A stretch of DNA of 64,000 nucleotides, taken from the NCBI GenBank assembly GCA_035501775.1, contig DATJVM010000046.1:36244-100243 (forward strand), written 5' to 3'. The notes under the pieces are model-generated. The model was not told where the DNA came from, did no database searches, and saw nothing but the letters and a program-made list of their open reading frames with translations. Shown piece after piece: positions 1 through 64,000 of this stretch. Each line of letters opens with the position of its first letter. The stretch's first letter is position 1. This stretch comes from Gemmatimonadales bacterium (GTDB lineage Bacteria > Gemmatimonadota > Gemmatimonadetes > Gemmatimonadales > GWC2-71-9). Made by a program: the position numbers and the translations under genes.

Positions 1-1741
<1,741 letters not shown>

Positions 1742-1837
1742 CCCAGCAGCGGCTGTTCATCAGGAACCGGCCGGAGGACCGGCGCCGGCATCGTGTCACC
1801 TCACGTTGTCTTTCCTCACTCTCTCTCGGAGAGCGTC

Positions 1838-3292
1838 ATGGACCTGTTCCGCCGCAAGAGTGTCACCGACCTCCAGACCGAGGCGCTGACCGACAACAGC
1901 CTGAAGCGAGCCCTGAGCGCGTGGAATCTGACCCTGCTCGGCATCGGTGCCATCATCGGCACCGGCATCTTCGTGCTGACCGGGACCGTCGCCGCCCAGA
2001 ACTCCGGGCCAGCGGTCGTGCTGTCGTTCGTGCTCGCGGGCGTGGCCTCGATCTTCGCCGCGCTCTGCTACGCCGAATTCGCCTCACTGGTGCCGATGGC
2101 GGGCAGCGCCTACACCTACGGGTACGCGACGCTCGGCGAGTTCGTGGCATGGGTGATCGGGTGGGACCTGATCCTGGAGTACGCGCTGGGGGCGGTGACG
2201 GTCGCGATCGGCTGGTCGGGGTACGTCGTCTCCTTCCTGAAGGACATCGGCATCAACGTCCCGGCCAGGTTGAGCGCGGCGCACGGAGTGCCGGTGACGC
2301 TCGCGGATGGGAGCACCGTCACCTCGGTCTTCAACCTGCCGGCGGTGGTGATCATCGCCATCGTCACCACGCTCCTGGTGGTGGGGATCCGGGAATCCGC
2401 GAACGTGAACAACGTGATCGTGTTCGTGAAGGTCGCCGTGGTGATCCTGTTCATCGTGGGCGCCGCGGGCGCGGTGCACGCGGCGAACTGGCATCCCTTC
2501 ATACCGCCGCAGACGATCGGCCCCGACGGCCAGCCGGTCCGGGGCGCGTTCGGCTGGGACGGGGTGGTGGCCGGCGCCGGTGTGGTGTTCTTCGCGTACA
2601 TCGGCTTCGATGCCGTGAGCACCGCCGCCCAGGAGGCGAAGAACCCCCAGCGCGACATGCCGGTCGGCATCATCGGCTCACTTCTCATCTGTACCGTCCT
2701 CTACATCCTCGTCTCCGGCATCGCCACCGGCGTGATGTCGTATACCGAACTCAACGTTCCCGACCCGATCGCCGTGGTCGCCGACCGGGCCGGGCTCGGG
2801 TGGCTGTCGACGCTCATCAAGCTGGGCGCCATTGCCGGCCTCTCGTCGGTCATTCTCGTGATGCTGCTCGGGCAGTCCCGGGTGTTCTACAGCATGGCCC
2901 GCGACGGACTGCTGCCGCAGTTCGTCAACAACGTGCACCCGAAGTTCAAGACGCCGTGGATCACCTCCATCGTGACCGGCTTGGCCGTGGCCGTCCCCTC
3001 CGGCTGGTTCACGGTGCGGGAAGCCGGGAGCCTGGTCTCGATCGGCACCCTGCTGGCATTCGTGATCGTGTCCGTCGGCATCCTGGTGCTCCGCGTCCGC
3101 GAGCCCAATCTGGAACGGCCATTCCGGGCCCCGCTGGTCTGGGCGACCGCGCCGCTCGGCGCGATCTCCGCCGTCTACCTCATGATCCATCTCGAGATGA
3201 GGACCTGGGAACGGCTGGTGATCTGGCTGGTGATCGGGCTCGTGGTCTACTTCACCTATGGAGTACGCAACTCGCGCCTGGCCAGACGCTAG
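1838..3292 (+). CDS. APC-superfamily amino acid permease (cationic amino acid transporter-like)
   Basis: ORF 1793..3292. ATG at 1838 (MDLFRRKSV...). About 12 hydrophobic segments and APC motifs (LLGIGAIIGTGIFVLTG, FFAYIGFDAVSTAAQEAKNPQRD). Confidence 0.85.
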   Translation: MDLFRRKSVTDLQTEALTDNSLKRALSAWNLTLLGIGAIIGTGIFVLTGTVAAQNSGPAVVLSFVLAGVASIFAALCYAEFASLVPMAGSAYTYGYATLGEFVAWVIGWDLILEYALGAVTVAIGWSGYVVSFLKDIGINVPARLSAAHGVPVTLADGSTVTSVFNLPAVVIIAIVTTLLVVGIRESANVNNVIVFVKVAVVILFIVGAAGAVHAANWHPFIPPQTIGPDGQPVRGAFGWDGVVAGAGVVFFAYIGFDAVSTAAQEAKNPQRDMPVGIIGSLLICTVLYILVSGIATGVMSYTELNVPDPIAVVADRAGLGWLSTLIKLGAIAGLSSVILVMLLGQSRVFYSMARDGLLPQFVNNVHPKFKTPWITSIVTGLAVAVPSGWFTVREAGSLVSIGTLLAFVIVSVGILVLRVREPNLERPFRAPLVWATAPLGAISAVYLMIHLEMRTWERLVIWLVIGLVVYFTYGVRNSRLARR

Positions 3293-3364
3293 CGCGCGGC
3301 CGCTGGTGCCGGCCCGGCGGGATCCGACTTGGCCCCGCCGGGCCGCGCCGTATCTTTACCGCCC

Positions 3365-4405
3365 ATGACTTCCCTGTCCACTGAGCGTGAGGCGGTCGCG
3401 CTGGCCTTCGCACGGGCGTTGCGACCCGGCCAGCGGATCTGCATCACTACGCACGTGAACCCTGACGGTGACGGCCTCGGAAGCGAGGCCGGCCTGGTGC
3501 ACCTCCTCCGGGCCAGGGGGCTCGACGCCGTCGTGACCAATCCGTCGCCCACCCCGGACCGGTACCACTTTCTCTTCAAGGAGCTCCCCGGCGTGGACCG
3601 GACGTCCGAGGCCGTGAAGGAGCTGCGGCGAGCGGACGCGATCGTGGTGTTGGACATCTCCGATGTCGGCCGCCTCGGGATGCTGAGCCAGACGGTTCTG
3701 GAGCGCGGGGTGCCCGTCGCCTGCATCGACCACCACGTGAGCCAGGGGCACCTCCCCGAGGGTCCGCGGTTCGTGGACCCCGAGGCGTCTGCCACCGGGG
3801 AACTCGTCTACGCGCTGGCCGTGGCCAACCGATGGCCGCTCACGCCACTCGCCGCGCGCGCCTTGTACGTGGCGATTCTCACTGATACCGGGGCCTTCCG
3901 GTTCAGCAACACCAAGCCCGCCGTGCTTCGCGCCGCCGCGGCGCTGCTGGAAACGGGCCTCGACCCAGAGCAGATCTATCTTGACGTGTACGCCAACGCG
4001 CCGGAGGGCCGGGCCCGCCTGCTGGCCGAAACGCTGCAGACGCTGGTGGTGGAGCCGGACCAGGGCCTTGCCTGGGTCACCGTTCCGCCGGGAGCGCTGG
4101 AACGGCTGGGCGCGACCCCGGACGACCTCGACGGCATCGTCGAGGTTCCGCGCAGCATTTCCGGGGTGCGGATGGCCCTCCTCTTCCGCGAGATCGCCGC
4201 GGGTCGGGTCAAGGTGAGTCTCCGTTCGGTGGGTGCCGTGGACGTGGCGGAGTTCTCGCGCCCCTTCGGGGGCGGGGGCCACACCAAGGCGTCCGGCCTG
4301 TCCCTCGAGGGCTCGCTCGCCCAGGTCCAGGCGCAGGTGCTGGCGGCGGCGCGTGAGTACCTTTCGGGGAGAGGTACCGCGAATGGAAACGGTGGTGTCC
4401 GATGA
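3365..4405 (+). CDS. DHH/DHHA1 phosphoesterase (NrnA-like oligoribonuclease/pAp phosphatase)
   Basis: ORF 3329..4405, ATG at 3365. Motifs HVNPDGDGLGS, CIDHHVS (DHH) and GGGGH (DHHA1). Confidence 0.8.
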   Translation: MTSLSTEREAVALAFARALRPGQRICITTHVNPDGDGLGSEAGLVHLLRARGLDAVVTNPSPTPDRYHFLFKELPGVDRTSEAVKELRRADAIVVLDISDVGRLGMLSQTVLERGVPVACIDHHVSQGHLPEGPRFVDPEASATGELVYALAVANRWPLTPLAARALYVAILTDTGAFRFSNTKPAVLRAAAALLETGLDPEQIYLDVYANAPEGRARLLAETLQTLVVEPDQGLAWVTVPPGALERLGATPDDLDGIVEVPRSISGVRMALLFREIAAGRVKVSLRSVGAVDVAEFSRPFGGGGHTKASGLSLEGSLAQVQAQVLAAAREYLSGRGTANGNGGVR

Positions 4406-4653
4406 ATGAACCGATGGCTGGACCCGATATCCTCGACCGGATCGAGCGCACGCTCGACACGCTCCGACCGTATATCGCGTCGCACCGCGGGAGCGTGGAA
4501 GTCGTGGATTTCGACGAGGCGGATGGCGCGCTGCTGCTGAGACTCGGCGGCACCTGCCACGGTTGCTCCGCCTCGACCATTACCCTGAAGCAAGGAATCG
4601 AAACCCGCCTGCGACAGCTCGTTCCCGAGGTGAAGCGGGTGGATGCCATCTGA
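4402..4653 (+). CDS. NifU C-terminal domain (Nfu-type) Fe-S cluster assembly protein
   Basis: 83 aa with the GGTCHGCSAS CxxC motif. Its start overlaps the upstream stop by 4 nt. Confidence 0.8.
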   Translation: MNEPMAGPDILDRIERTLDTLRPYIASHRGSVEVVDFDEADGALLLRLGGTCHGCSASTITLKQGIETRLRQLVPEVKRVDAI

Positions 4654-4705
4654 CCCGACCGGCCGGGGCTTTCGCGCCACCGGGCCGTAGTACTTGAGGA
4701 TCGAG

Positions 4706-5839
4706 ATGTCCGAACCGCTTGCCGCGCAGGTCGCCGCCGTCCTGGGGCGCATTCAGAACCCGCGCCTCGAAAACGACCTGCTCTCCTCCGGCATGATCCG
4801 GGACCTGAACGTGAGCGAGGATGGCAAGGTCAGCTTCACCTTCCTCCTGGCGCGGGAAGATCCCGCGACCCTGGTGCGCGAGGCGCGGGCCGCCGTCCGC
4901 GCCGTTCCAGGCGTCAATCCCGCGGAGCTCAGAATCAGCGTGGTGGACCCGGGCGGGGCCGCGAAAGCCACCCACCCACCTCCAGGCCAGCCGGCTCCCG
5001 GCCAGACCCACGGCCAAGCCGGATTGGTTCCGCCCCCACCCTCGCCCAGCGACTACCCCAACCTCGGTCGCATCATCGCGATCTCGTCCGGCAAGGGCGG
5101 AGTGGGCAAGTCCACCGTGTCGGTGAACCTCGCGGTGGCCCTCGCATCCAGGGGCCATCGGGTGGGCCTCATGGACGGCGACATCTACGGGCCCAACGTG
5201 CCGAGGATGTTCGGGGTCTTCGAGAAGCCTCCGGTGGTACAGGGGAAGATCCAGCCCCTCGTGGCCTGGGGTGTGAAGCTGATGTCGCTGGGGTTCCTGG
5301 TGGATCGTGATGCTCCGGCCATCTGGCGCGGCCCGATCATCATGAAGATCGTGCAGCAGTTCCTGCGCGATGTGGACTGGGGCGACCTCGATTTCTTCAT
5401 CGTGGATCTCCCGCCCGGCACCGGGGACGCCCAACTGTCGCTGGTGCAGTCGTGCCAGGTGGCCACGGCCGTGATCGTGACCACGCCACAGGAGGTGGCC
5501 GTCGGCGACGCGCTGCGCGGCGCGCGGATGTTCGAGAAGGTGAACGTCCCGGTCTCGGGTGTCGTCGAGAACATGAGCGCCTGGACCGACCCCGCCACCG
5601 GGCACCGCCTCGAGATGTTCGGGAGCGGTGGCGGCCAGCGGCTCGCGGAGGAGCTCAAGATCCCGCTCCTGGGATCGATCCCTCTTCAGCCCGGCATGGC
5701 GGAACTCGCCGACCGCGGGAAACCCATCGTGGCCGCTGAACCCGAGAGCCCGGCCGCCAAGGCCCTCACGGCTATCGCGGACCAGCTGACCAGGGCAGGC
5801 GTGGTACGATCGGTGTCCCTCCCGGTGCTGCGCGGGTAG
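4706..5839 (+). CDS. apbC: Mrp/NBP35 (ApbC) Fe-S cluster carrier ATPase
   Basis: ORF 4694..5839. ATG at 4706 is preceded by GAGGA. Has an N-terminal DUF59-like region and the deviant Walker A SGKGGVGKST. Confidence 0.9.
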   Translation: MSEPLAAQVAAVLGRIQNPRLENDLLSSGMIRDLNVSEDGKVSFTFLLAREDPATLVREARAAVRAVPGVNPAELRISVVDPGGAAKATHPPPGQPAPGQTHGQAGLVPPPPSPSDYPNLGRIIAISSGKGGVGKSTVSVNLAVALASRGHRVGLMDGDIYGPNVPRMFGVFEKPPVVQGKIQPLVAWGVKLMSLGFLVDRDAPAIWRGPIIMKIVQQFLRDVDWGDLDFFIVDLPPGTGDAQLSLVQSCQVATAVIVTTPQEVAVGDALRGARMFEKVNVPVSGVVENMSAWTDPATGHRLEMFGSGGGQRLAEELKIPLLGSIPLQPGMAELADRGKPIVAAEPESPAAKALTAIADQLTRAGVVRSVSLPVLRG

Positions 5840-5873
5840 GCGGCCCGCCGAGTCCGCGGGCCCGACCGAGCCC

Positions 5874-6632
5874 ATGCCGATCATCACGCTCCTCACCGAT
5901 TTCGGAACCACCGACTCCTACGTGGGCGAACTCAAGGGCGTGCTGTGCTCCCGCGCCCCCGCCGCGACCCTGATTGACGTCACTCACACCATCGCTCCGG
6001 GGGATGTCGCCGCGGCAGCCTACGTGCTCGCCCGGACGTGGGTCCGCTTTCCGCCGGGGACCGTCCACCTCGCCGTGGTCGACCCCGGCGTCGGCACGGC
6101 GCGCGAGGCCCTGGCCCTCCGCGCGCGCGACCACTACTTCGTGGGCCCCGACAACGGGATCTTCTCGGGCGTCATTCGCGGGGCCGAGGTCGAGGCCGTC
6201 TCCCTGCCCACGCCGGCCGGAGCCGCGCCGACCTTCCACGGGCGAGACGTCTTCGCGCCCGCCGCCGCGCGACTGGCGGTGGGCGCGGGGCTGGAGAGCC
6301 TCGGCCAGCGCTTCACCGGCATTCCTCGCCGCGTGTCCGGGTCGGTGCCGCACTATGAAGGGAAGGTGCTGGTGGGCGAGGTGATCTACATCGATCGCTT
6401 CGGAAACCTGGTCACCAACTTCGCCGCCGAACTGGTTCCACCCCATGCCATGCTCGAGGTGGAGGCAACCACCATCGGTCCGGTCCGGAGCACCTTCGGC
6501 GATGTCCCGTCCGGAGGCCTGCTCGCCTACATGGGCTCCGGTGGGATGATCGAGATCGCGGTCCGGAACGGCTCGGCCGCCCGCCGACTGGGATTGGGAG
6601 TAGGAGGAAAGATCCGGGCGCGGCTCGGGTGA
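5874..6632 (+). CDS. SAM hydroxide adenosyltransferase / SAM-dependent halogenase-like (DUF62) family protein
   Basis: The N-terminus ITLLTDFGTTDSYVGELKGV and motifs VVDPGVG and GPDNG are typical of the DUF62 family. Confidence 0.75.
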   Translation: MPIITLLTDFGTTDSYVGELKGVLCSRAPAATLIDVTHTIAPGDVAAAAYVLARTWVRFPPGTVHLAVVDPGVGTAREALALRARDHYFVGPDNGIFSGVIRGAEVEAVSLPTPAGAAPTFHGRDVFAPAAARLAVGAGLESLGQRFTGIPRRVSGSVPHYEGKVLVGEVIYIDRFGNLVTNFAAELVPPHAMLEVEATTIGPVRSTFGDVPSGGLLAYMGSGGMIEIAVRNGSAARRLGLGVGGKIRARLG

Positions 6633-6645
6633 CCGACGCCGCTGA

Positions 6646-8223
6646 CTATTGGCGGGACCGCTCGCTGGGCGGGCGCTGAACGGCGGTGACCCCGAACTGG
6701 GGGGTGGCCCAGAGGTACTCGTCGGTGAGCGCCTCGGCCGGCAGGAGCCGCCCGGCAAAATGCTCGCGGAAGCCAGCCCGCGACAGGAGCGAGGCCCCGA
6801 ATCCCACGGTCGCGAGCAGCCAGGTGACCAGAACGGCCGTCGCGAGGACCAGCGTGCCCGCGACTGGCACCCATCCGAAGAGCACCCAGCAGAGCCAGAG
6901 AGCGGCCACCCCCGCCAGGCCCACCAGCACGTACCGGTAGCTGTTGGCCGACCCTAATGCCACGCCGCGTGCCAGTTGCCGCCGTGTCAGGCTCTCACCC
7001 ATGGCATGGGCCACGGCCAGGAACCCGCCGAGGACCGCGACGATCAAGAGCAGCGCGAAGACGATGACGGCGAACGGGACGAGAAGGATGCCGGCCACGC
7101 TGAGCACCAGGCCCACGATCAACATGCCGAAGGTGGGGAGGATCAACACCTCTCCCAGGAGCCCGACCAGGAGAGAGCGGCTGAAGGAGTGAAGCGCAGT
7201 ATCGCTGATGACCTCCAGCGGAGGCCGCGCGAAGAGCACGAGCCCGAACCCGACCAGGACCAGCGTGAAGAACACTCCCGCCACTCCGGCCGCGTTCCGC
7301 GAGGCGACCAGCCAGGCCGGCGGTGATTCCGGCGGCGCGGGGAGGCGGTCGGCGCTCGGCCGCGCCGAGTCGACGGTGCGGATCTGCCCCCGAATCTCGC
7401 CACCCAGGTCCCGCACCTGCCCCCGGACCGCGAGCACGTCGCCCGTGACCACCCCGCCGGGGTGGACCAGGATGTTGCCCTCCACGGTGGCCAGATTCCC
7501 GTCGAGTGTGCCGTAGATATCCGCGTCACCGCGCACCACGAGGAGCGGACCCGGGAACTCTTCGTCGGTACCGATGCTGAAATGCCCCTCGCGCGCCTGG
7601 CCACCCGGGACGGTGATCCGGAGCGCATCGCCCCGGAGCTCGGCGGCCGCGTGCAGCATGGGACTCAGGCGGACCGGATCGGACAGATCCGAGAGATCGA
7701 TCGTGAGTCCGCCGGGCGGGCTCGGCGCAATCCGCTGAGACTGGATGCCCGCGTCGGGTGGCGCGCTCAGCGGGGAGGCGCGCTGCCGGAACAATTCGGC
7801 GTAGGCGGCTTCCTCGTGGGACAGCCCCTGTGGATGCCACTCGCGAACCAGGTCCAGGGCCGCCGGAGTGCCCTTACGTGAGGCCTCTACCACGAGGGCG
7901 CGCCAGGCAGCCTCGAAGGCCCCCCCCGCCGGCGCGTGACCCACCAGGCGGCCGTCCACGCGTATGTCGCCGCCGTCCAGCGACAGGACCAGCGACCCGC
8001 CGTCCGCATAGTCGAACGTGAGCGACTCCATGCCCGTGGCGATCGTCACGCTGTGATCCCGCACCACGTGGCTCGGTGTCTCGGACAGGAACTGGCTCAC
8101 CAGCTCGAGGCGGGATCTCCACCCCGTGCTCGAGCCCACTACCGGTTCTTCGGCACGAAGCGCCACAGTGGCCGCGCCCAGCGCGGTCACGGCCAGCAGG
8201 ACCGCAGGCTTACGAAAGAGCAC
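6646..8223 (-). CDS. Membrane protein with bactofilin-like (polymer-forming) repeat region and C-terminal multi-TM domain
   Basis: ORF 6646..8316. The likely start is GTG at 8223 (VLFRKPAVLLAVTALGAATVALRA signal/TM). A central G-x-I/V-x-G repeat stretch (DADIYGTLDGNLATVEGNILVHPGGVVTGDVLAVRGQVRDLGGEIRGQIR) is followed by 4-5 C-terminal TM helices. It lies last in the ECF sigma operon. Confidence 0.5.
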   Translation of the reverse strand: MLFRKPAVLLAVTALGAATVALRAEEPVVGSSTGWRSRLELVSQFLSETPSHVVRDHSVTIATGMESLTFDYADGGSLVLSLDGGDIRVDGRLVGHAPAGGAFEAAWRALVVEASRKGTPAALDLVREWHPQGLSHEEAAYAELFRQRASPLSAPPDAGIQSQRIAPSPPGGLTIDLSDLSDPVRLSPMLHAAAELRGDALRITVPGGQAREGHFSIGTDEEFPGPLLVVRGDADIYGTLDGNLATVEGNILVHPGGVVTGDVLAVRGQVRDLGGEIRGQIRTVDSARPSADRLPAPPESPPAWLVASRNAAGVAGVFFTLVLVGFGLVLFARPPLEVISDTALHSFSRSLLVGLLGEVLILPTFGMLIVGLVLSVAGILLVPFAVIVFALLLIVAVLGGFLAVAHAMGESLTRRQLARGVALGSANSYRYVLVGLAGVAALWLCWVLFGWVPVAGTLVLATAVLVTWLLATVGFGASLLSRAGFREHFAGRLLPAEALTDEYLWATPQFGVTAVQRPPSERSRQ

Positions 8224-52937: not shown

Positions 52938-54182
<1,245 letters not shown>

Positions 54183-54265: not shown

Positions 54266-54874
54266 TCACTTCGCCGGCTGAATCTCGGTCCGCTTCGTGA
54301 TGACATTGTCGATGAGCCCGTATTCGCGGGCCTCCTCCGCCGACATGAACCGGTCGCGGTCCATGTCGCGCTCGATCGTCTCGACCGGCTGGCCCGTGTG
54401 CTGCGCGTAGAGTCCGTTGAGCTTGGAGCGCAGATAGAGAATCTCCCGCGCCTGGATCTCGATGTCGGCCGCGGTCCCCTGCGCCCCGCCTGACGGCTGG
54501 TGGATCATGATTCGTGAGTGAGGCAAGGCGCTGCGCTTGCCCCTGACGCCCGCCGCGAGCAGGAAGGAGCCCATCGAGGCCGCCATCCCCATGCAGATGG
54601 TGTTCACCGGGGCCTTGAGGTACTGCATCGTGTCGTAGATCGCGAGTCCGCTGGAAACGATCCCGCCCGGCGAGTTGAGGTAGAGATAGATGTCGCGCTC
54701 GGGATTGTCTGCCTCCAGAAACAGCAGCTGCGCGATCACGATATTCGCCACGTCATCGTTGATCGGCGCGCCGAGGAAGACAATCCGGTCCATCAGCAGC
54801 CGCGAGAAGATGTCGTAGGACCGCTCGCCGCGGCTCGACCGCTCGATGACGTAAGGAGGATATAGAGTGGCCAT
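54266..54874 (-). CDS. clpP: ATP-dependent Clp protease proteolytic subunit
   Basis: [11 protein letters not shown], active-site Ser context [14 protein letters not shown]. Confidence 0.97.
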
Positions 54875-54882
54875 GCGTGGCC

Positions 54883-56130
54883 TCAGGCCTCGACAACTGT
54901 GGATTGGGCGAGGAGCCAGGCGAATGCCTTCTCCTCCGTGATGGACCGCTCCAGCTCGCGGAGGCGGCCCGCCTTCTCGAGCTGACTGTACAACTGTCCC
55001 GCGGAAACGTGCCGCTCCTGGGCCAGGGACGAAACCCGCTCGTCCAGCTCGGCCTCGGTGGCCGCCAGCTTCTCCCGCTCGACCACGGCGTCGAGTACCA
55101 GCTCCCGGCGCACCTGCTGCTCGGCCACGGGGCGGAACTCGCCCTGGAACGTCTCGAACTGTTCCGCCGGAATCTTGTACGCCTCCATGTAGCCCCGCAC
55201 CAGCCGTGTCACCAGCGACGCCGGTGCCGGCACCGCGTTGGCCGCGTAAAGCTGCTGCAGCAGCTCCTGGCGCACCCCGGCGTCGGCCGAGGCCTTCGCC
55301 TCCGCCTCCAGGTCCTCGCGGAGCCGCGCCCGGAGCGCATCCACCGTTTCGAAATCTCCCACCGCGCGGGCGAAGGCATCGTCCAGGACCGGGAGCTCCT
55401 GCCGCTTGACCTCGTGCAACGTGATCCGCACTCGCCGGGACTGGCCGCGGCGGCTCTCGTCCGGGTGATCGTCAGGGAAACGGACGTCGGTGTCGACCGT
55501 TTCGCCCGGTCCCATCCCCATCACTTTCTCTTCGATGTCTGGCAGGGCGCGGCCCTCGCCCAGCACCACCGTGTATGGCTGCGGCGGACCCAGCGTCTCG
55601 CCATCGTACGAGGCGACCTCGAGACGCACCAGCTGGCCGGGGGACGGCCGCTCCCCTTCAACCGGCAGCCAGGACGCCTGACGCTCGCGCAGGTCCCGGA
55701 GCTTCTCCTCAACGTCCTCGTCCGTCACCGCCTTCACCTGGCGCCGAATGGTGAACCCGCCGGTCCGGCTCAGGGAGACGTCGGGACGCACCTCCACGTG
55801 GAACTCGAATTCGAGAGGCTTCCCCTCCTCGAACTTGAGATCGTGGATGTGCGGCTCCGCGATTGGCTTGAGGTCCTGGGCCTTGAGGGCCGTGTCCCAG
55901 CTCTCGCGGATCAGTTCCTCCAACACGCTCTGCCGGATTGCCTCGCCAAACCGACGCCGGACAACCGCCTCCGGGGCCTTGCCTGGCCGAAAACCGGGCA
56001 GCCTGGCCCTCTGACTATAGTATCGGACGGCCTTGGTCTCGGCCTGCAGGATCCGGTCCAGTGGAACCGTTACCTGCAAGGACTTGGAGGCGGCGTCTTC
56101 CTTTGTTTTGACGATTGAGATGTCCGACAT
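54883..56130 (-). CDS. tig: Trigger factor
   Basis: ORF 54883..56139, ATG at 56130. Ribosome-binding motif GFRPGKAP, in conserved tig-clpP-clpX order. Confidence 0.95.
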
Positions 56131-56241
56131 GGGCGGCAATCTACCCGGGCCTGTCCCCGGGGGTCAAATGAACCTGCCCGGTTGCCGATAGTGGGAAGGA
56201 GGTGGAGTGGGGCTGCTTAACCCTTTGCTTGAGAACGACCT

Positions 56242-57863: not shown

Positions 57864-58483
57864 GGGCGCTCCGGTGAGGCCTCGCCTGGCGCGTGTTCCG
57901 GCGCCGGCGGCAGCGGGCGAGGCCGGTCCGCTCCGTCGCGACCCAGCCGGTCACGGAGGCGCAGAAACTGGGCGTCGCTGGCTCCGTTCGAGGCCATGTC
58001 GCGAACCGAGCTCCAGACCTGGCTGGCCGGAACCCCGTCGCTCAGCAGGTCTGCGAGGACACTGAGCGGGACAAAGAGCGATCGGTTAGGGCGGAGCGTG
58101 CGCAGGGTATGCACCGAGCCTGGATCGGCCCCGGCCCGGAGGGCGGCGGCCCCGGCTACGAGCTCCGCCTCCGAGGCCTCGTTCCCGAGGGCCTGGCGCG
58201 CCGTATCCATTCTGGCGAGCAGTCCCCCCACGGCCACCATGATTCGCGAGGAGTCGGCCCCCTTGCTCTCGCCCTCCAGGGCCTTCTGGATGAGAGGCTC
58301 CGTGGGGAGTCTCAAGCGGGCCGCGCTGTCCACTAGGCGCTGCACTTCGACGGCCGTGCCGTGAGGGAGCCGAGCCGCCAGCCGTGCCTCTTGCCCAAGG
58401 AGCGGCGGGGAGGGGGCCCCGAGCAGGATCAGCACCGGGCAGAGCCAGGGTACGAACCGGCGGACATCCCTATCAGTTGGCAA
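57860..58483 (-). CDS. Hypothetical exported helical protein
   Basis: Signal-like VPWLCPVLILLGAPSPPLLG. It overlaps both neighbours by 4 and 11 nt. I recognised no family. Confidence 0.4.
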   Translation of the reverse strand: MPTDRDVRRFVPWLCPVLILLGAPSPPLLGQEARLAARLPHGTAVEVQRLVDSAARLRLPTEPLIQKALEGESKGADSSRIMVAVGGLLARMDTARQALGNEASEAELVAGAAALRAGADPGSVHTLRTLRPNRSLFVPLSVLADLLSDGVPASQVWSSVRDMASNGASDAQFLRLRDRLGRDGADRPRPLPPAPEHAPGEASPERP

Positions 58484-58955
58484 CGGTGATCACCGAAGTC
58501 GGGGTGTTGAAGTCGTTGTCCGCTCTTGGCGTGGCGGCGTCAGGCGCCCAGTGCCGCCCATCCAGCAGATAAGCGTAGCGATATCTCCCCGGCCTGAGAC
58601 GGAGGGTCACCGACCACTCGCCGTCGAGATCGGTAAGCGGGTCTGCCGCGGGGTTCCAGTCGTTGAAGTCCCCCACCACAGCAACGGCCCTCGAGCCGGG
58701 CGCCCGAAGCTCGAAGCGGATGGGGAGCGTCTCCCGCCTGCCGGGCAGACGGAGGCTGAGCCCGAGAACCAGCGCCGCCGCCACCACGGCGCTCGCGATG
58801 GCCCATCTTCGCCAGCGCCGGTCGCGCGCGAGTCCGGCCAATGCCGCTTCGACCGCTCGGCTCTCCGGAACGCGCGCGGACCGGAGCTCGCGCACCAGCG
58901 CTTCCAGCAGCGGGCTCGAGTCCCGGTCGTCGTCGACATCAACCATGGTAGACAT
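58473..58955 (-). CDS. Single-pass anti-sigma-like protein with extracytoplasmic CBM48/AMPK-beta-type glycogen-binding domain
   Basis: TM WAIASAVVAAALVLGLSL, then VAVVGDFNDWNPAADPLTDLDGEWSVTLRLRPGRYRYAYLLDG. Overlaps the ECF sigma stop by 17 nt. Confidence 0.55.
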   Translation of the reverse strand: MSTMVDVDDDRDSSPLLEALVRELRSARVPESRAVEAALAGLARDRRWRRWAIASAVVAAALVLGLSLRLPGRRETLPIRFELRAPGSRAVAVVGDFNDWNPAADPLTDLDGEWSVTLRLRPGRYRYAYLLDGRHWAPDAATPRADNDFNTPTSVITVAN

Positions 58956-59478
58956 CCTTGAGCAGATCGCGGAGCCGCTCGCAGGCGCGGTTCACCCGCA
59001 TCTTGAGCGCCGAGATCGATGCACCCGTGAGCGCGGCGATCTCCTCATAGCTCAGCTCCTCGACGTGCTTGAGCAGAAAGGCCTCCCGCTGGTCCGGCGC
59101 CAGACGACTCAACGCGCGGTCGATCTCCTCGCGCCAAAGTCCGGCTTCGCTCAGGTCAGGGCCGCCGGCACGTTCCAGTGCGTCACGTGCCGGCGAGTCT
59201 CTTACCACGGCGTCGCGCCGCGCCAGGCGGGTCCGACACCGGTTCATCAGGATCGAAAGCAGCCAGGCCTGGAAGCGTTCCGGGTGTCTGCACTGGCTGA
59301 TCGATCGGTACGCCCGCATCAGCGCGTCCTGCAAGGCATCTTCGGCGTCCGCCGCGTCACCCAGCAGGTGATAAGCCAGGCGCTCGAGGCGCTGGCGATG
59401 TCGCGTCACGAGCTCGGCATAGGCCGTGAGATCTCCGCCACGGACCCGTCCCACCAGCTCCGCGTCGCTCGCGCTCAT
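58939..59478 (-). CDS. ECF-type RNA polymerase sigma-70 factor
   Basis: Region 2 (DAEDALQDALMRAY) and region 4 (LKHVEELSYEEIAALTGASISALKMRVNRA). Confidence 0.9.
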   Translation of the reverse strand: MSASDAELVGRVRGGDLTAYAELVTRHRQRLERLAYHLLGDAADAEDALQDALMRAYRSISQCRHPERFQAWLLSILMNRCRTRLARRDAVVRDSPARDALERAGGPDLSEAGLWREEIDRALSRLAPDQREAFLLKHVEELSYEEIAALTGASISALKMRVNRACERLRDLLKDVYHG

Positions 59479-60554: not shown

Positions 60555-60773
60555 CTATGGCTGGTAGCGAATCAGGTCAACGCTTGCCGGTGGCAGCGGC
60601 AGGTGGGCAAGGAAGAATGGCTGCACTGCCGTGGAGGTCAGTCGCGTTCCTGCAAGCGGATCGCTTACGGAATAGTTCGCCGCGCTGGGCGCCCACAGCC
60701 CCGCAGACACAAATAGCGGATCAAGAGACTCGATTGTATGGGGCGTGTCGTCGATCATCATAGTTGAGTCCAA
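60555..60773 (-). CDS. Possible 72-aa protein of unknown function (fourth cassette gene)
   Basis: ATG start overlaps the SDH protease 3-prime end by 16 nt, and the terminator lies just downstream. I recognised no family. Confidence 0.3.
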   Translation of the reverse strand: MDSTMMIDDTPHTIESLDPLFVSAGLWAPSAANYSVSDPLAGTRLTSTAVQPFFLAHLPLPPASVDLIRYQP

Positions 60774-61744
60774 CCTTCCCGGATAACCTGCATCTGGACG
60801 CCCTGTGGCGCTAGGGCGGCACGACCCTCAGTCTGAAAACCGTCCAGCCTTCCTGCCGACTCGATGTAGGCCCGGTCGAGCTTAAACGGGTACGGGTTCG
60901 TGGTTGCCAGTGCGGCCAAAGGGTTAAATGGCGCACGCAACTCCAGGTCTGCTTCGTATTGTTGCAGCAAATCCACAAGCGCCTGCTCAAGTTTCGACTC
61001 CGGCTCCTCAACCTTGAGCCCGATGCTCTTTGCCTCGCGCCGGGTGATAAGGTAGTCGTGCGAGTAAAGCTTTTCCGTAAGCGTTTCGATTATTCCGTCC
61101 ACCGTTGGGTCGTCGCCTTTCGTGTGAAACTGCAACAACTTGCGAGAAAGCATCCGGATCTGCGTCCGCGACCGGAATACCTGCCCTAGGGCCACCGGCC
61201 GCACGTCTGATGCCAGCTTCTCGAAAACGCTGACCATCCCGTCCTCGCCCTTGATGTCCGCCGCCTCACGCGCCAGGCTCAGGTACCCAATCACCTCCTC
61301 AACACTGACCGGGAGGGTCGGGAGGGGGGCGCCGGGTTGGATCGGCATCCCATGTACGAGGGGGTTGTAGGGCCCGTTGGTGGAGGGGTCCACTGGAGAA
61401 AGCTGCCCCTCCGGGAGCATGATGATCCGGTCGGCGCCCAAGGCAACGAGCGTCCCGGCGCTTTGGCAACGAAAGGGAACAAGCAGAGTGAACTCGTTGC
61501 AATACTCTCGGATCAGCCCCACTAGACGGAACGCCGACATCACGTCGCCGCCGAGTGTGTAGAGGAATAGATCCAATTTCGGCTGCTTGCCGATTAGCCG
61601 AAGATGTCGCGACGCGAGCGGGATCAGATCGGCCGCGACACGCGTTTCCATACCCTGTCGATCGCCGAGCACGATCGTCAGGACCCGACTACCTCGGGCT
61701 TTCTCGATCCGCTGAAGCGCTGCTACACGAGTATCTCGCGGCAC
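60758..61744 (-). CDS. SDH-family (serine dehydrogenase proteinase) ClpP/SppA-fold serine protease
   Basis: The stretch LTIVLGDRQGMETRVAADLIP...KLDLFLYTLGGDVMSAFRLVGLIREYCNEFTLLVPFRCQSAGTLVALGADRIIMLPEGQLSPVDPS matches my memory of the SDH family core, with the Ser in QSAGT. GTG start is preceded by AGGAAG at 6-nt spacing. Confidence 0.8.
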   Translation of the reverse strand: MPRDTRVAALQRIEKARGSRVLTIVLGDRQGMETRVAADLIPLASRHLRLIGKQPKLDLFLYTLGGDVMSAFRLVGLIREYCNEFTLLVPFRCQSAGTLVALGADRIIMLPEGQLSPVDPSTNGPYNPLVHGMPIQPGAPLPTLPVSVEEVIGYLSLAREAADIKGEDGMVSVFEKLASDVRPVALGQVFRSRTQIRMLSRKLLQFHTKGDDPTVDGIIETLTEKLYSHDYLITRREAKSIGLKVEEPESKLEQALVDLLQQYEADLELRAPFNPLAALATTNPYPFKLDRAYIESAGRLDGFQTEGRAALAPQGVQMQVIREGWTQL

Positions 61745-61786
61745 CGAATACTTCCTAGGAAGAGAGCTAACAACTTACCACCATCT

Positions 61787-62563
61787 TCATGGTGGCGGTG
61801 GTATAGGCGTTTCAGCCGTCGTCGTGGGGTCAATCTTACGCGCCCACGTCTGGATGTGATCTTCGAGTTCCCCGAGACACTGATCGTGTTCCTGGAATTC
61901 GGACGGCTCAAGCTCGTGGCCAACGACATCCTTCCCGCTGACCGTCAGCTGCATGATCTGGACGTCTCCCCCAATCCCGCCGGGGTTAGTCTGGATTGCG
62001 TGGCGCATCGCCCAGAGCGCGCCGAGGGTTCCGTCTGCGAGACTGGGCGTCTTGTTCTTCCAGAGCACTCGGCGGACGAAATACATGAACGGTTCTGCTA
62101 AGTGCTGCCCACTCCCTGCGGTAGTGAATGTCAGCGGGTCTGGCCCAATGAACATCGGTTGGCAAGAATGCGCGACACTCACTAAGCAGGGAGTTGAGTC
62201 GAGGGGATAGGCAACAACCAGCTGAAAGCCTGCCTGTTGGAGGACGATCTGCGAATTGTTTTGGGCCTTCGCCTGTTGTTCGGCGAGCTTCCATTCGTCC
62301 TCAACCAGCGGCTTAATCGCCTCTCGCAGCTTTGTCAGGGAGCGGGCAACTGGCCCAGTCCGAAAGGACTTCATGTGGTCGTGGAGCGCGCCACACAAAC
62401 GCTGCCCAAAGGGTACTGAGCCAGCGACCCCGACGATGAGCGGGTCTGAGGTATGGAGGGTCAGCTTGCGCCCGAGCGGCAGGGCGGTGGGTCCAGTGGA
62501 AACCGCACTATCAGCTGCGACGACGATGCCATCGTGGCACCGTACTCCGATAATGAGGGTCAC
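61787..62563 (-). CDS. Proteasome beta-subunit/HslV-like Ntn-hydrolase (Thr protease) homolog
   Basis: (f)M-TLIIGVRCHDGIVVAADSAV...GRKLTL...IVGVAGS...TTAGSGQ. Thr is the first residue after the initiator. Asp at mature position 17, Lys at 32 and the GSG motif fit the T1/D17/K33/S129-G130 proteasome pattern. Confidence 0.75.
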   Translation of the reverse strand: MTLIIGVRCHDGIVVAADSAVSTGPTALPLGRKLTLHTSDPLIVGVAGSVPFGQRLCGALHDHMKSFRTGPVARSLTKLREAIKPLVEDEWKLAEQQAKAQNNSQIVLQQAGFQLVVAYPLDSTPCLVSVAHSCQPMFIGPDPLTFTTAGSGQHLAEPFMYFVRRVLWKNKTPSLADGTLGALWAMRHAIQTNPGGIGGDVQIMQLTVSGKDVVGHELEPSEFQEHDQCLGELEDHIQTWARKIDPTTTAETPIPPPP

Positions 62564-62567
62564 TCAG

Positions 62568-63032
62568 TCAGTCGCGGAAGACGCTCTTGGCGCGCATGGC
62601 CGGGTAGGCCTCATAGATGGCGCGCACGAGGTCGTTGAACGGTAGGGACTGGGCCCACCGCACAACATCGTTCAGGTAGGCAAGGCCGTCCTGGGGAGCG
62701 CGCGTAGCGATGTGCTGCGCAGCTTGCTGCCCCTCTGGCGTCAGCTGATAGCGGCGTAAGCTGTTGCCGCGCGAATAGTCCACGGAGATGAAATCGGTTA
62801 GTGCGAACAGGTCTGCGTCGTTGTAGATCTGTCGGCAAAATGGGCCGTAGTTGTACGGCTCGAAGCGGTAGAATCCCGGGTGGACCGTCGCCTTCTTCCT
62901 CTCGCCGAGGAGGAAGAGAACCTTCTGGAGCTGAACCGGGGTAAGGCCGCTGCGCGACCGCTCAAGTGCGAGCAGCAGCCAATCGCGCGGTTCCAACCGT
63001 GGCGATCGGACCTTATTCGGCGTCTTGGCCAT
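62568..63032 (-). CDS. DUF4065/Panacea (SocA-like) domain protein, predicted wHTH
   Basis: ORF 62568..63209. The ATG at 63032 has GGAG 9 nt upstream. LTPVQLQKVLFLLGE...FEPYNYGPFCRQIYNDADLF resembles the kLqKLLY...W.yGPv..evY signature of DUF4065. The stop lies 4 nt before the next gene's GTG. Confidence 0.5.
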   Translation of the reverse strand: MAKTPNKVRSPRLEPRDWLLLALERSRSGLTPVQLQKVLFLLGERKKATVHPGFYRFEPYNYGPFCRQIYNDADLFALTDFISVDYSRGNSLRRYQLTPEGQQAAQHIATRAPQDGLAYLNDVVRWAQSLPFNDLVRAIYEAYPAMRAKSVFRD

Positions 63033-63057
63033 GAGGCGGGCTCCAGCAAAGGGGCTG

Positions 63058-63092
63058 CTTGTGAAAATAGTCACAAGCCAAGCTACCGGCAA
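63058..63092 (-). promoter_or_regulatory. Sigma-70-like promoter overlapped by a perfect inverted repeat (operator candidate)
   Basis: On the minus strand: TTGCCG (63092-63087), a 17-nt spacer, TATTTT (63069-64). The IR CTTGTGA-N6-TCACAAG (63077-63058) spans the -10, about 25 nt upstream of ATG 63032. Confidence 0.35.
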
Positions 63093-63171
63093 CGATTGCA
63101 GGAGGCTTTCATAACGTAGTGACGGACGCTTCATCGGTCCAGAATAGACCGGTGTCATCGACTCGTCGTCA

Positions 63172-64000
63172 TCATATTCCCGCAACGGGCTCCTTGAATG
63201 GCCCGTCAAACCGCGCGGTTCCGTCGGCGGCTACGGCCAGGACGCATGCATCGAGGCGGTCCGGGCTGCGCGCGATGATCGCCCGCCACTCCGCCTTGCT
63301 GATGATCTGGAGCTTCCCGGAGGAGTTCGTGAATCCCCGACAGGTCCGGAGCTCCTCCTCCAGCAGCGGGTCGGGCGGCAGCGCCACCAGCCCCCGCACC
63401 AACATCGTCCGGAACCGGTCGTAGGCCTCGGCCCGGAGGTTTGCGTACCGGATCACCGCGCCCTCCTCCTCGGGGCGCTTCGAGGCGATGAACGCCGTGC
63501 AGGGGTAGCCCGCCTCGCGGAGCCGGTCGCCGAGCCCTTTCCCGACGCCGATCTCATCTACGACCACGGAGGTCGGTGGCCCCAGCGCGGTGAGCGGGTC
63601 GCCCATGATCCTGACCGGGAACCCGGCGGCCATCAGCGCGGTTGCCCGGGCGGTCTCGCGGATCTTCGGCGGGACGTGCAGCTCGCGGAAGATGTCGATG
63701 ATCCGCCCCACCGACCTCATGGTGTCCGACTCCCGCCACGTGATCAGCCGTTCCACGAACCCGCCCCGCGCGACGGCGATCACCGATTCATCGCCGGCTT
63801 CTGAGGCCCCGACGTCCACGCCCAGGACACGGCGCTTCCGCTGCTGCGTGACCTGGAAGGCCGCGTTCTCGTACCGAGCGAAGGCGGCGGCGATGGCCTC
63901 GGGCGGGAAGAAGGCGTCGGAGGGCGACTCCGGGAACCGCGCGCAGACCCGCGACTGGAAGACCGCCGACTCCTCGCCGTAGGTCCAGCGGAGATTGTCG
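63172..64000 (-). CDS. terL: Phage terminase large subunit, C-terminal (nuclease) part; N-terminus beyond the window
   Basis: The frame stays open from 63819 up to base 64000 (...YGEESAVFQSRVCARFPESPSDAFFPPEAIAAAFARYENAAFQVTQQRKRRVLGVDVGASEAGDESVIAVA...VVVDEIGVGKGLGDRLREAG...YANLRAEAYDRFR...SSGKLQIISKAEWRAIIARSPDRLDACVLAVA). This is the classic RNaseH-like terminase nuclease pattern. Confidence 0.75.
   Translation of the reverse strand, partial: DNLRWTYGEESAVFQSRVCARFPESPSDAFFPPEAIAAAFARYENAAFQVTQQRKRRVLGVDVGASEAGDESVIAVARGGFVERLITWRESDTMRSVGRIIDIFRELHVPPKIRETARATALMAAGFPVRIMGDPLTALGPPTSVVVDEIGVGKGLGDRLREAGYPCTAFIASKRPEEEGAVIRYANLRAEAYDRFRTMLVRGLVALPPDPLLEEELRTCRGFTNSSGKLQIISKAEWRAIIARSPDRLDACVLAVAADGTARFDGPFKEPVAGI

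Follow-up and report, generated by a model that had tools for sequence, protein, structure and literature searches.

Among the described relatives of the proteasome catalytic subunit, HslV is paired with hslU, the 20S beta subunit belongs to a system with a propeptide, an alpha-subunit gene and Mpa/ARC/PAN, and Anbu is defined by an operon of ATP-grasp, alpha-E and transglutaminase-like genes. A 2021 study by Fuchs, Alva and Lupas further described 22 proteasome-homolog subfamilies with no co-occurring AAA+ protein and no informative genomic context (PMC8665760). Here we examine a 64,000-nucleotide (nt) stretch of DNA from a Gemmatimonadales bacterium (contig DATJVM010000046.1; the whole stretch is called the window), in which a minus-strand gene encodes a protein that a first-pass annotation had described as an orphan proteasome-beta/HslV-like threonine protease. 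We find that this gene is one half of an obligate two-gene unit, the other half being the small gene directly upstream. To our knowledge, the bacterial proteasome homologs that lack an unfoldase have no known function, be it Anbu, BPH or the 22 subfamilies of 2021. One such family now has an obligate, co-evolving partner, apparently of a toxin-binding or protease-feeding class, and the function of orphan proteasome homologs becomes a concrete experimental question on two small soluble proteins.

The upstream gene leads to a different set of systems. In PanAT modules (Kurata et al. 2022, Ernits et al. 2023) the gene of a larger effector directly follows, and is coupled to, that of a small Panacea-type protein, a layout that recurs here with a Panacea-like protein, and the antitoxin-upstream arrangement is the commoner gene order (PMC8832971). 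The antitoxin PanA consists of a central helix, five surrounding helices and a three-strand sheet carrying G62-P63-V64, which is needed for neutralisation (Kurata et al., PMC8832971). An invariant G63-P64-F65 lies at the position of this motif in our upstream protein, and mobile or defence-island contexts are common to both systems. The PanAT domain pairs with many unrelated effectors, whereas the effector here would be a proteasome-family threonine hydrolase, and PanAT antitoxins carry PF13274, a Pfam model for which our protein appears too divergent. In the type VI toxin-antitoxin system SocAB, the Panacea-domain protein SocA also works through a protease; SocA delivers its toxin to the housekeeping ClpXP, but the present cassette encodes the protease itself. 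DarTG provides the best structural match of the upstream protein, in the DarG chains, but DarG has a macrodomain and pairs with an ADP-ribosyltransferase, neither of which is found in the cassette. The terms ‘proteasome’, ‘HslV’, ‘PF00227’ and ‘Ntn’ are absent from the examined text and supplements of the PanAT/NetFlax papers (Kurata 2022, Ernits 2023), and a literature search of incomplete coverage for proteasome homologs with Panacea, DUF4065, toxin-antitoxin or antiphage, and for PDC-M19, returned nothing relevant. The missing unfoldase, on which the first-pass annotation had remarked, is already known, because 22 such subfamilies have been described; what appears to be new is the obligate Panacea-like partner.

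The threonine hydrolase and its relatives

The protease is encoded by an open reading frame (ORF) of 258 amino acids (aa) with a GTG start followed by ACC (fMet-Thr; N-terminal sequence MTLIIGVRCHDGIVVAADSAV...). The minus-strand sequence across the junction with the partner gene reads ...TTC CGC GAC TGA CTGA GTG ACC CTC, and the codon that precedes the GTG in the same frame is a TGA stop, so a longer N-terminus is impossible. An initiator methionine before threonine is expected to be cleaved, given the specificity of methionine aminopeptidase, and HslV matures in this way. The catalytic threonine of the protease, as far as its sequence can tell, is expected to be exposed by removal of the initiator alone and without a propeptide, in line with what had been proposed from the Met-Thr start; indeed, about 140 of 158 family representatives start with Met/Val/Leu-Thr, and a few start with Met-Ser. 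With the methionine counted as residue 1, the key residues are T2, D18, K33, G48 and G150-S151-G152, and after its loss they become T1, D17, K32, G47 and S150. Asp17, a lysine at position 32 and a GSG motif, as the first-pass annotation had listed them in the latter numbering, are thus all present. We built the family alignments A1 and A3, the first of which also served as query for a scan of GTDB genomes. In an alignment of 149 family members G48 and G150 are invariant, and T2, G6, C9, G12, D18, K33, G152, D157, W168 and W184 are at least 90% conserved. The equivalent of Ser129 varies, two homologs having GGG or GIG in its place. The S2-S3 loop of the window protease is 5 residues shorter than in the rest of the family, and this shortened loop is the sole low-confidence part of its AlphaFold model.

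Taken as a single sequence, the protease scores weakly against curated models. It reaches Pfam Proteasome (PF00227) with an E value of 4.5e-4 and 20.3 bits, against a threshold of 22.4, and over residues 4-68 only; of nine distinct homologs found by a word-indexed search (P0002-P0010), seven have a precomputed PF00227 match. The HslV equivalogs TIGR03692 and NF003964 score 12.7 and 13.1 bits (cut-offs 157.75 and 137), the 20S beta equivalog TIGR03634 scores 18 bits (cut-off 224), and the best match of the window protease in the PDB by phmmer is at 0.058. Searched exhaustively with a profile, 1.84 billion cluster representatives yielded 1808 matches at E<=1e-3; of these, 1040 reach <=1e-10 and 557 reach <=1e-30, and almost all are 240-280 aa long and align from profile position 1. 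Against the PDB, the family profile matches active 20S beta subunits with an E value of 4.6e-10 and HslV structures at ~1e-6. The profile alignment places Thr2 on the mature Thr1, Asp18 on Asp17, the lysine on Lys33, Gly48 on Gly47 and the GSG motif on Gly128-Ser129-Gly130, and the catalytic Thr, Asp and Lys thus fall on Thr1, Asp17 and Lys33 of active 20S beta subunits.

In the AlphaFold (AF2) model of the protease (predicted local distance difference test score, pLDDT, 86; predicted template modelling score, pTM, 0.83), strands and helices follow one another as in a beta subunit (S1-S10/H1-H4); in addition, H2 is long (72-100), a short extra helix occupies 105-110, and a helix of 25 residues lies at the C-terminus. 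Searching the PDB with this model by Foldseek gave 1174 matches at E<=1e-3, with 20S alpha and beta subunits and Anbu on top (E 7e-12 to 1e-10, template modelling score (TM) 0.56-0.72); the match to Anbu 5nyw (TM 0.62-0.69) is no better than those to 20S subunits. The protease is predicted to have the alpha-beta-beta-alpha sandwich fold of the proteasome-like N-terminal-nucleophile (Ntn) hydrolase superfamily, and profile and model together indicate a genuine, if highly divergent, relative of the proteasome catalytic subunit, in keeping with the proteasome-beta/HslV-like assignment of the first-pass annotation.

The described families each share part of these features. HslV has its Thr1 exposed by methionine removal alone, together with Asp17, Lys33 and G-S-G, as does the window protease; HslV is ~175 aa long and is paired with hslU, whereas the window protease has ~258 aa, an extended H2 and an extra C-terminal helix, and no hslU. 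The 20S beta subunit gives the best matches in sequence and fold, and its catalytic residues align one to one, but the propeptide, alpha-subunit gene and Mpa/ARC/PAN of its system are lacking here. Anbu is of similar size and also has a long C-terminal helix and no unfoldase; its defining operon is absent from all contexts that we have seen, and a Panacea-like partner is found instead. The homologs of Fuchs and colleagues (WPH, PHI, PMI-1 to 6, PHD, DAH and others) share the proteasome-beta-like fold, Thr1/Asp17/Lys33/Gly47, the missing propeptide, the lack of AAA+ co-occurrence and the patchy bacterial distribution. By their descriptions, Anbu and WPH have a long C-terminal H5 helix like that of the window protease, and the lack of an H3/H4 insertion in our model argues against PMI-2 to 6, again as these subfamilies are described. 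The accessions recovered for our family, HTS88697.1 and OHB18224.1, differ from the representatives listed in 2021, and those subfamilies were reported without informative context, whereas the present family has an obligate upstream partner.

Around the window locus we found no AAA+ unfoldase, 20S alpha subunit, Mpa/ARC, Anbu-type gene, or ATP-grasp and transglutaminase-type genes within 10 kb upstream or ~5 kb downstream of the protease, and the rest of the window holds none of the classical partners (HslU, 20S alpha, Mpa/ARC, Anbu-type genes) either, which bears out the first-pass annotation on this point. The upstream part reaches past the end of the window and was read on a contig carrying an identical protease (L074); its content (the 523-aa terminase-like gene, DUF2299, HTH_3, SOI, Big_2, polysaccharide deacetylase, HtrA and DnaK) rules out a cognate AAA+ gene just beyond the window. 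A gene for hslU is likewise missing from both flanks, from the window and from 120 flanking genes of other loci, and neither a 20S alpha subunit nor an AAA+ gene lies in the contexts of the other protease loci. Among the 120 flanking genes, the 25 commonest families include none of the Anbu-operon domains (ATP-grasp, alpha-E, transglutaminase-like). The window's sole AAA+ unfoldase gene is clpX, which belongs to a canonical tig-clpP-clpX cluster located 7.6 kb away from the cassette; eight unrelated genes lie between, and the cluster is unrelated to the island that holds the cassette in composition and in comparative context.

Other proteasome homologs came up at the margins of these searches. 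A 428-aa ORF in a Terracidiphilus metagenome-assembled genome (MAG; L068, 772-2058) matches the protease family only over its first ~90 residues (hidden Markov model (HMM) E 1.4e-9), has no partner, and may be a fusion or a distinct family. A viral contig (L070, 7245-9414; IMGVR_UViG_3300028593_000039) encodes a different proteasome homolog of 271 aa that starts with Met-Ser and, after strand S2, has a Cys-rich (CPSC) insertion, located between a LexA/CI-like repressor with helix-turn-helix (HTH) and S24 domains and a Fic/Doc-like gene, and without a Panacea-like partner. Other, shorter HslV-like homologs are encoded by phages.

The partner and its linkage to the protease

The likely start of the partner gene, ATG 63032, lies 8 nt downstream of a GGAG. 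The open frame reaches 63209, and this extension overlaps the terminase-like gene and is not conserved. The 4-nt junction between the stop codon of the partner and the start codon of the protease suggests translational coupling, and in 61 of 67 loci the distance is between -4 and +19 nt, the outliers being ORF-calling artefacts or split genes. Every metagenome contig found via protease homologs has a same-strand gene of 139-179 aa directly upstream of the protease, with 38-47% identity to the window ORF 62568-63209. The genome scan, which covered one genome per GTDB species, returned 61 loci, and in 60 of them the partner HMM matches the ORF that ends just before the protease start; the exception is the Terracidiphilus ORF, a 90-residue match to a different protein. 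The hosts belong to Acidobacteriota, Chloroflexota, several candidate-phyla-radiation groups, Ignavibacteria, Planctomycetota, Omnitrophota and Armatimonadota, and include Methylobacterium tarhaniae, whose strain DSM 25844 (L041) is a cultured host of the pair.

The linkage also holds in the other direction. In a metagenome scan seeded with the partner, 504 of the first 600 pattern matches were relatives, and among the best 80 of these, 76 have the protease downstream, its start 3-30 nt away apart from two that are displaced by 250-300 nt. Three of the four loci without it have less than 60 nt of contig remaining, and in L142 an intact partner is followed by a protease gene truncated after 25 codons (MTLIIGIKCKDGIVVGAG...*). 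Look-ups seeded with a partner homolog in three contigs also found the protease directly downstream. The pairwise identities of the two proteins co-vary (Pearson r = 0.72, 55 loci). Neither a recurrent third gene nor an AAA+ gene is found among the 120 flanking genes of ~45 non-syntenic loci; the commonest families there are transposases, DNA methyltransferases, integrases and Mrr-like nucleases, and most neighbours are metabolic. Partner and protease are an obligate, co-diverging unit in ~140 genomes and metagenome contigs, and the protease is not an orphan, because the DUF4065-like neighbour that the first-pass annotation had noted in passing is its partner.

Disrupted copies of the pair are informative as to which part of the partner is retained. 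In L007 (1-317) and L008 (2-202) only the last 40-60 codons of the partner remain, preceded by stop codons, and the protease is intact; the 40-codon upstream ORF (...SFNDLVSAIYKAFPEMKANSIFREP*) corresponds to the partner's conserved C-terminal end. This sole truncated partner thus retains its C-terminal end, which suggests that the C-terminal helices and tail of the partner matter for the protease. The L007 protease adjoins an AIPR (abortive-infection-type) gene. The protease ORF is split in L036, L060, L064 and L065, interrupted in L039 and truncated in L142, and the partner is intact in all of these.

The window partner has no Pfam match at E<=1, and its direct assignment to Pfam DUF4065 failed at this threshold. 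Among 52 partner homologs, six reach Pfam PadR weakly and six reach EarA. All 52 match the PADLOC defence candidate PDC-M19A (best 5.5e-19), over the N-terminal 125 of 294 model positions, and also match a Type I specificity-subunit model in its C-terminal region, and 14 match the DarG model. The NCBIfam SocA antitoxin model matches at 0.011, on the conserved QLQKVLFLLG...F-x-P-Y-N-Y-G-P-F...Y-x-D-A. The protease has no match in PADLOC-DB v2 at E<=1, and no system catalogued there has both genes. The partner carries a Y-x-Y-G-P-F motif and a nearly invariant extreme C-terminus, ...YP-x-x-R-x-x-S-V-F-x-x, which is flexible in the model. In the AF2 model (pLDDT 94) a central helix is surrounded by six helices and accompanied by a small sheet, and the model's best matches in the PDB are the DarG chains B and D of M. 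tuberculosis DarTG, 7yk3 (E 3e-4 and 7e-4; TM 0.51-0.61), in which the matched region is presumably the C-terminal toxin-binding domain. The winged-helix regulators MarR, PadR and ZitR rank after DarG (TM 0.25-0.41). We conclude, from sequence motifs and predicted fold, that the partner is probably a divergent member of the Panacea/DarG-C fold class, though the Pfam model PF13274 is reached by few of its homologs, and weakly.

Source annotations of the partner homologs include ‘uncharacterized phage-associated protein’ and ‘YwgA’. Distant relatives are present on haloarchaeal and Arthrobacter plasmids (partner HMM E 1e-18 to 1e-19), and three of eight such plasmid relatives are annotated ‘type II toxin-antitoxin system antitoxin SocA domain-containing protein’, with PadR or HTH regulators among the other annotations. 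Two of them, for which the context was examined, precede unrelated genes and no proteasome homolog. The partner is a basic protein (median isoelectric point (pI) 8.9), and the median pI of the protease is 5.6. At the position of a recognition helix, the partner helix has a conserved Asp and Tyr, not basic residues.

Upstream of the window partner lies a perfect inverted repeat that might be an operator or promoter element, and the best palindrome there exceeds 96% of shuffles. Over 61 loci, palindromes upstream of the partner are not generally enriched (8 with p<=0.05; mean arm 6.2 vs 5.4 nt), and a conserved operator was rejected on this ground.

Mobility and possible roles of the pair

The pair is a horizontally mobile cassette. 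In Acidobacteriota it forms a 2385-nt unit with a convergent IS1595-family transposase (DDE_Tnp_IS1595 5e-42); two copies within one MAG share 99.9% identity, and copies from different MAGs share 93-95% (L011/L012, 5451-7835; L021, L013, L039). The protease gene of L039 is split at about 6596 by an insertion of 1.8 kb. An AT-rich inverted repeat with 13-15-nt arms (AAATTATATAAAAAAACAGTTTTTTATATAATTT) lies upstream of the partner in the IS1595 unit. Elsewhere the pair adjoins an integrase with DUF488 and a methyltransferase (MTase)-Mrr gene (L006), an integrase, AAA_25 and MTase (L073), or a TCAD9-containing conflict system (L002). The last of these comprises a GAF-rich 1080-aa protein and a response-regulator-TCAD9 protein (L002-L004, about 200-7700), a conflict system of the ternary-complex type that is probably separate from the pair and shares its island.

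A different picture is seen in Chloroflexota, in ~21 genomes of which the pair is flanked by a divergent uvrB on one side and by a convergent Orn/DAP/Arg decarboxylase gene on the other. Identities among these genomes are 82-98% for UvrB, 39-88% for the protease and 51-95% for the partner, and the pair is therefore a fast-evolving resident of a fixed site. The uvrB-partner intergenic region holds a conserved AGACCCG-N3-4-CGGGTCT about 75-95 nt before the partner start and, further upstream, a second conserved palindrome, CACGACTCATAATCGTG; these may be operators or uvrB regulatory sites (for example in L040, L042, L046, L051, L052, L054, L056 and L057, and also in L001, L020, L032, L044, L048, L053, L059 and L060).

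Given the relatives of the partner, the gene order, the insertion sequence (IS) cargo status and duplicate copies, the defence- or mobile-type neighbours, the rapid divergence and the excess of disrupted protease genes, we favour, if tentatively, the interpretation that the pair is a toxin-antitoxin or defence cassette similar to PanAT, whose effector is a threonine protease. The two genes would form one self-contained, horizontally mobile cassette, in which the upstream gene encodes a small Panacea-type protein, of the fold class of the PanA and SocA antitoxins and the toxin-binding part of DarG, and the gene that follows, coupled to it in translation, specifies a divergent proteasome-beta-like threonine protease, the whole acting as a type II toxin-antitoxin or abortive-defence module. 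We hypothesize that the partner binds the protease stoichiometrically and holds it inactive, and that when the partner is lost, titrated or degraded, for instance upon phage infection or loss of the element, the freed protease might cut cellular or phage proteins without any ATPase. With somewhat greater reserve still, we suggest that this could be the first case in which a proteasome-family threonine protease serves as the effector of toxin-antitoxin or abortive defence, checked or directed by a Panacea-type protein rather than an AAA+ protein, in a widespread, IS-borne, ATP-independent module; if so, a family of orphan proteasome homologs gains its first dedicated partner and a testable function. 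A toxic protease would represent a new enzymatic class of toxin-antitoxin or antiphage effectors, and a new, ATP-free way to gate a proteasome-like active site.

Several observations weigh against a toxin-antitoxin or defence role. Only three of the 52 partners reach Pfam SocA_Panacea (PF13274), weakly and with a best E value of 0.0048. The partner has a mean identity of 42% and the protease one of 38%, and a slightly more conserved partner is unusual for a disposable antitoxin. The intact proteases beside truncated partners in L007 and L008 argue against a lethal toxin, unless the retained C-terminal part of the partner suffices, and some of the split protease ORFs may be MAG assembly errors. 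The single site in Chloroflexota fits a host-beneficial, stably inherited function. Finally, the protease has no match among 72,556 plasmids, and in IMG/VR we found one 31-residue N-terminal match only, to a different Ser1 homolog; carriage of the protease by phages or plasmids was rejected on these searches, and the protease is therefore not a classical plasmid-addiction gene.

Much of the same evidence could be read in terms of a regulated protease complex, in which the partner would be an ATP-independent adaptor or activator that sits on an oligomeric proteasome-like particle and recruits substrates to it in a stress or housekeeping role. We regard this as the main rival, though as less probable than the antitoxin reading. 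HslU, PAN and Bpa use their C-terminal tails to activate their peptidases, and by analogy the tail of our partner, nearly invariant, flexible in the model and kept in the truncated copies, might do so too; the higher conservation of the partner, the single syntenic site in Chloroflexota, the absence of the pair from plasmids and its near absence from viral contigs, and the complementary charges of the two proteins all go in the same direction. SocA provides a precedent, as a Panacea-domain protein that is a proteolytic adaptor for ClpXP (PMC8832971), but the PanA proteins that have been tested neutralise by direct binding and without proteases (PMC8832971), and the IS1595 cargo, the scattered phyletic distribution, the duplicates and the fast divergence relative to the flanks fit a conflict element better. 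A partner of this kind would be a new type of non-ATPase proteasome regulator, and either outcome, activator or antitoxin, bears on the evolution of proteasome regulation.

The remaining alternatives change the nature of one protein or the identity of the partner. An ImmR/ImmA-type switch, in which the partner regulates the cassette or its element as a winged-helix DNA-binding protein and is cleaved by the protease on a signal, would account for the basic charge of the partner, the rank of MarR, PadR and ZitR directly after DarG in the fold search, the weak PadR matches and annotations, and the perfect palindrome upstream of the window partner; it is made improbable by the lack of palindrome enrichment over the 61 loci, by the lower TM of MarR/PadR compared to DarG-C, by the Asp and Tyr at the recognition-helix position, and because Panacea domains are not known as DNA binders (PMC8832971). 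That the Ntn enzyme is no general protease and acts instead as a sequence-specific transpeptidase, ligase or amidase on the partner or another defined substrate seems to us slightly less probable again. Proteasome homologs do include the monomeric ligase connectase (PMC8665760), near-invariant residues are found outside the canonical set (C9, Q54, D157, W168 and W184) and the Ser129 equivalent is not strictly conserved, but the Thr1/Asp17/Lys33/Gly47 constellation of active beta subunits is conserved, H1 and H2, missing in connectase, are present, and there is no connectase-like S3-S4 insertion (a comparison made by description). The least probable reading by far, and one we consider very unlikely, is that the protease is a stand-alone orphan homolog working with the adjacent SDH-type serine protease as a two-protease unit on mobile DNA. 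The first-pass annotation had pointed to the pairing with a second protease fold, and the two genes are indeed 42 nt apart on the same strand of the same low-GC island, and are found together in three contigs of this population. No SDH homolog is present in the 69 other protease loci checked, so the SDH protease was rejected as a functional partner and its pairing with the Ntn protease is incidental; the conserved neighbour is the upstream Panacea-like gene.

Surroundings of the cassette in the window

The genes from the 72-aa ORF to the partner form an island of atypical composition (Table 1), with GC 0.59-0.62 and GC at third codon positions (GC3) 0.66-0.79, compared to a GC of 0.68 for the window and a GC3 of 0.78-0.91 for neighbouring host genes. 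The island lies beside a terminase-like gene, and the location of the protease in mobile DNA, flanked upstream by a DUF4065-like gene and downstream by an SDH-type ClpP-like protease, was correctly recognised by the first-pass annotation.

Table 1 Location and basis of the features discussed, in window coordinates
Feature	Position	Strand	Basis
Proteasome-beta-like N-terminal-nucleophile (Thr1) hydrolase, predicted effector gene of the pair	61787..62563	-	ORF, family alignments, profile, fold
Panacea/SocA/DarG-C-like helical partner, 154 aa from ATG 63032	62568..63032	-	conservation, HMMs, fold
Partner stop-protease start junction, 4 nt (TGA-CTGA-GTG)	62564..62567	-	sequence
Perfect 8+8 inverted repeat GCTTGTGA-N6-TCACAAGC, 24 nt upstream of partner ATG	63057..63078	.	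sequence
Atypical island: 72-aa ORF, SDH protease, Ntn protease, partner	60555..63032	-	composition
SDH-type ClpP-fold serine protease, 328 aa	60758..61744	-	Pfam SDH_protease 4e-17, phrog_11747 1e-35
Terminase-large-subunit-like gene (523 aa), 3' part, directly upstream of pair	63172..64000, runs off window	-	phrog_2 5.3e-8
tig-clpP-clpX cluster	tig 54883-56139, clpP 54266-54874, clpX 52938-54182	-	canonical gene order

The SDH protease scores 72.8 bits against NCBIfam Clp_like_SDH (cut-off 250). It accompanies the pair only in contigs with an identical Ntn protease, and is a locus-specific co-cargo of the island, outside the conserved module. In the gap between the stop codon of the Ntn protease and the start of the SDH protease lies a perfect 12-bp palindrome, CTTCCTAGGAAG, at 61751-61762, whose AGGAAG half could act as a ribosome-binding site for the SDH protease. 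The SDH protease (60555-61744 region; L074 10820-12009) has weak matches to head-maturation protease models and is followed by an overlapping ORF of 68-72 aa.

The terminase-like gene, which has no Pfam match, points to a mobile or prophage-derived context. It is complete in L074 (6446-9392 region), where it is preceded by DUF2299 and an Xre-type HTH (HTH_3) gene. Since neither portal nor capsid genes are seen around it in the window and L074, it looks like part of a degraded prophage or satellite. The window has no tRNA. The SDH protease, the small ORF and the terminase-like gene may be what is left of a phage head-morphogenesis module that received the pair by insertion.

On the other side of the island, at 58473-59478 on the minus strand, a gene for an extracytoplasmic-function (ECF) sigma factor (58939-59478) overlaps an anti-sigma-like gene, which has an AMPK1_CBM/CBM_48 domain of the glycogen-binding type according to Pfam calls in L074.

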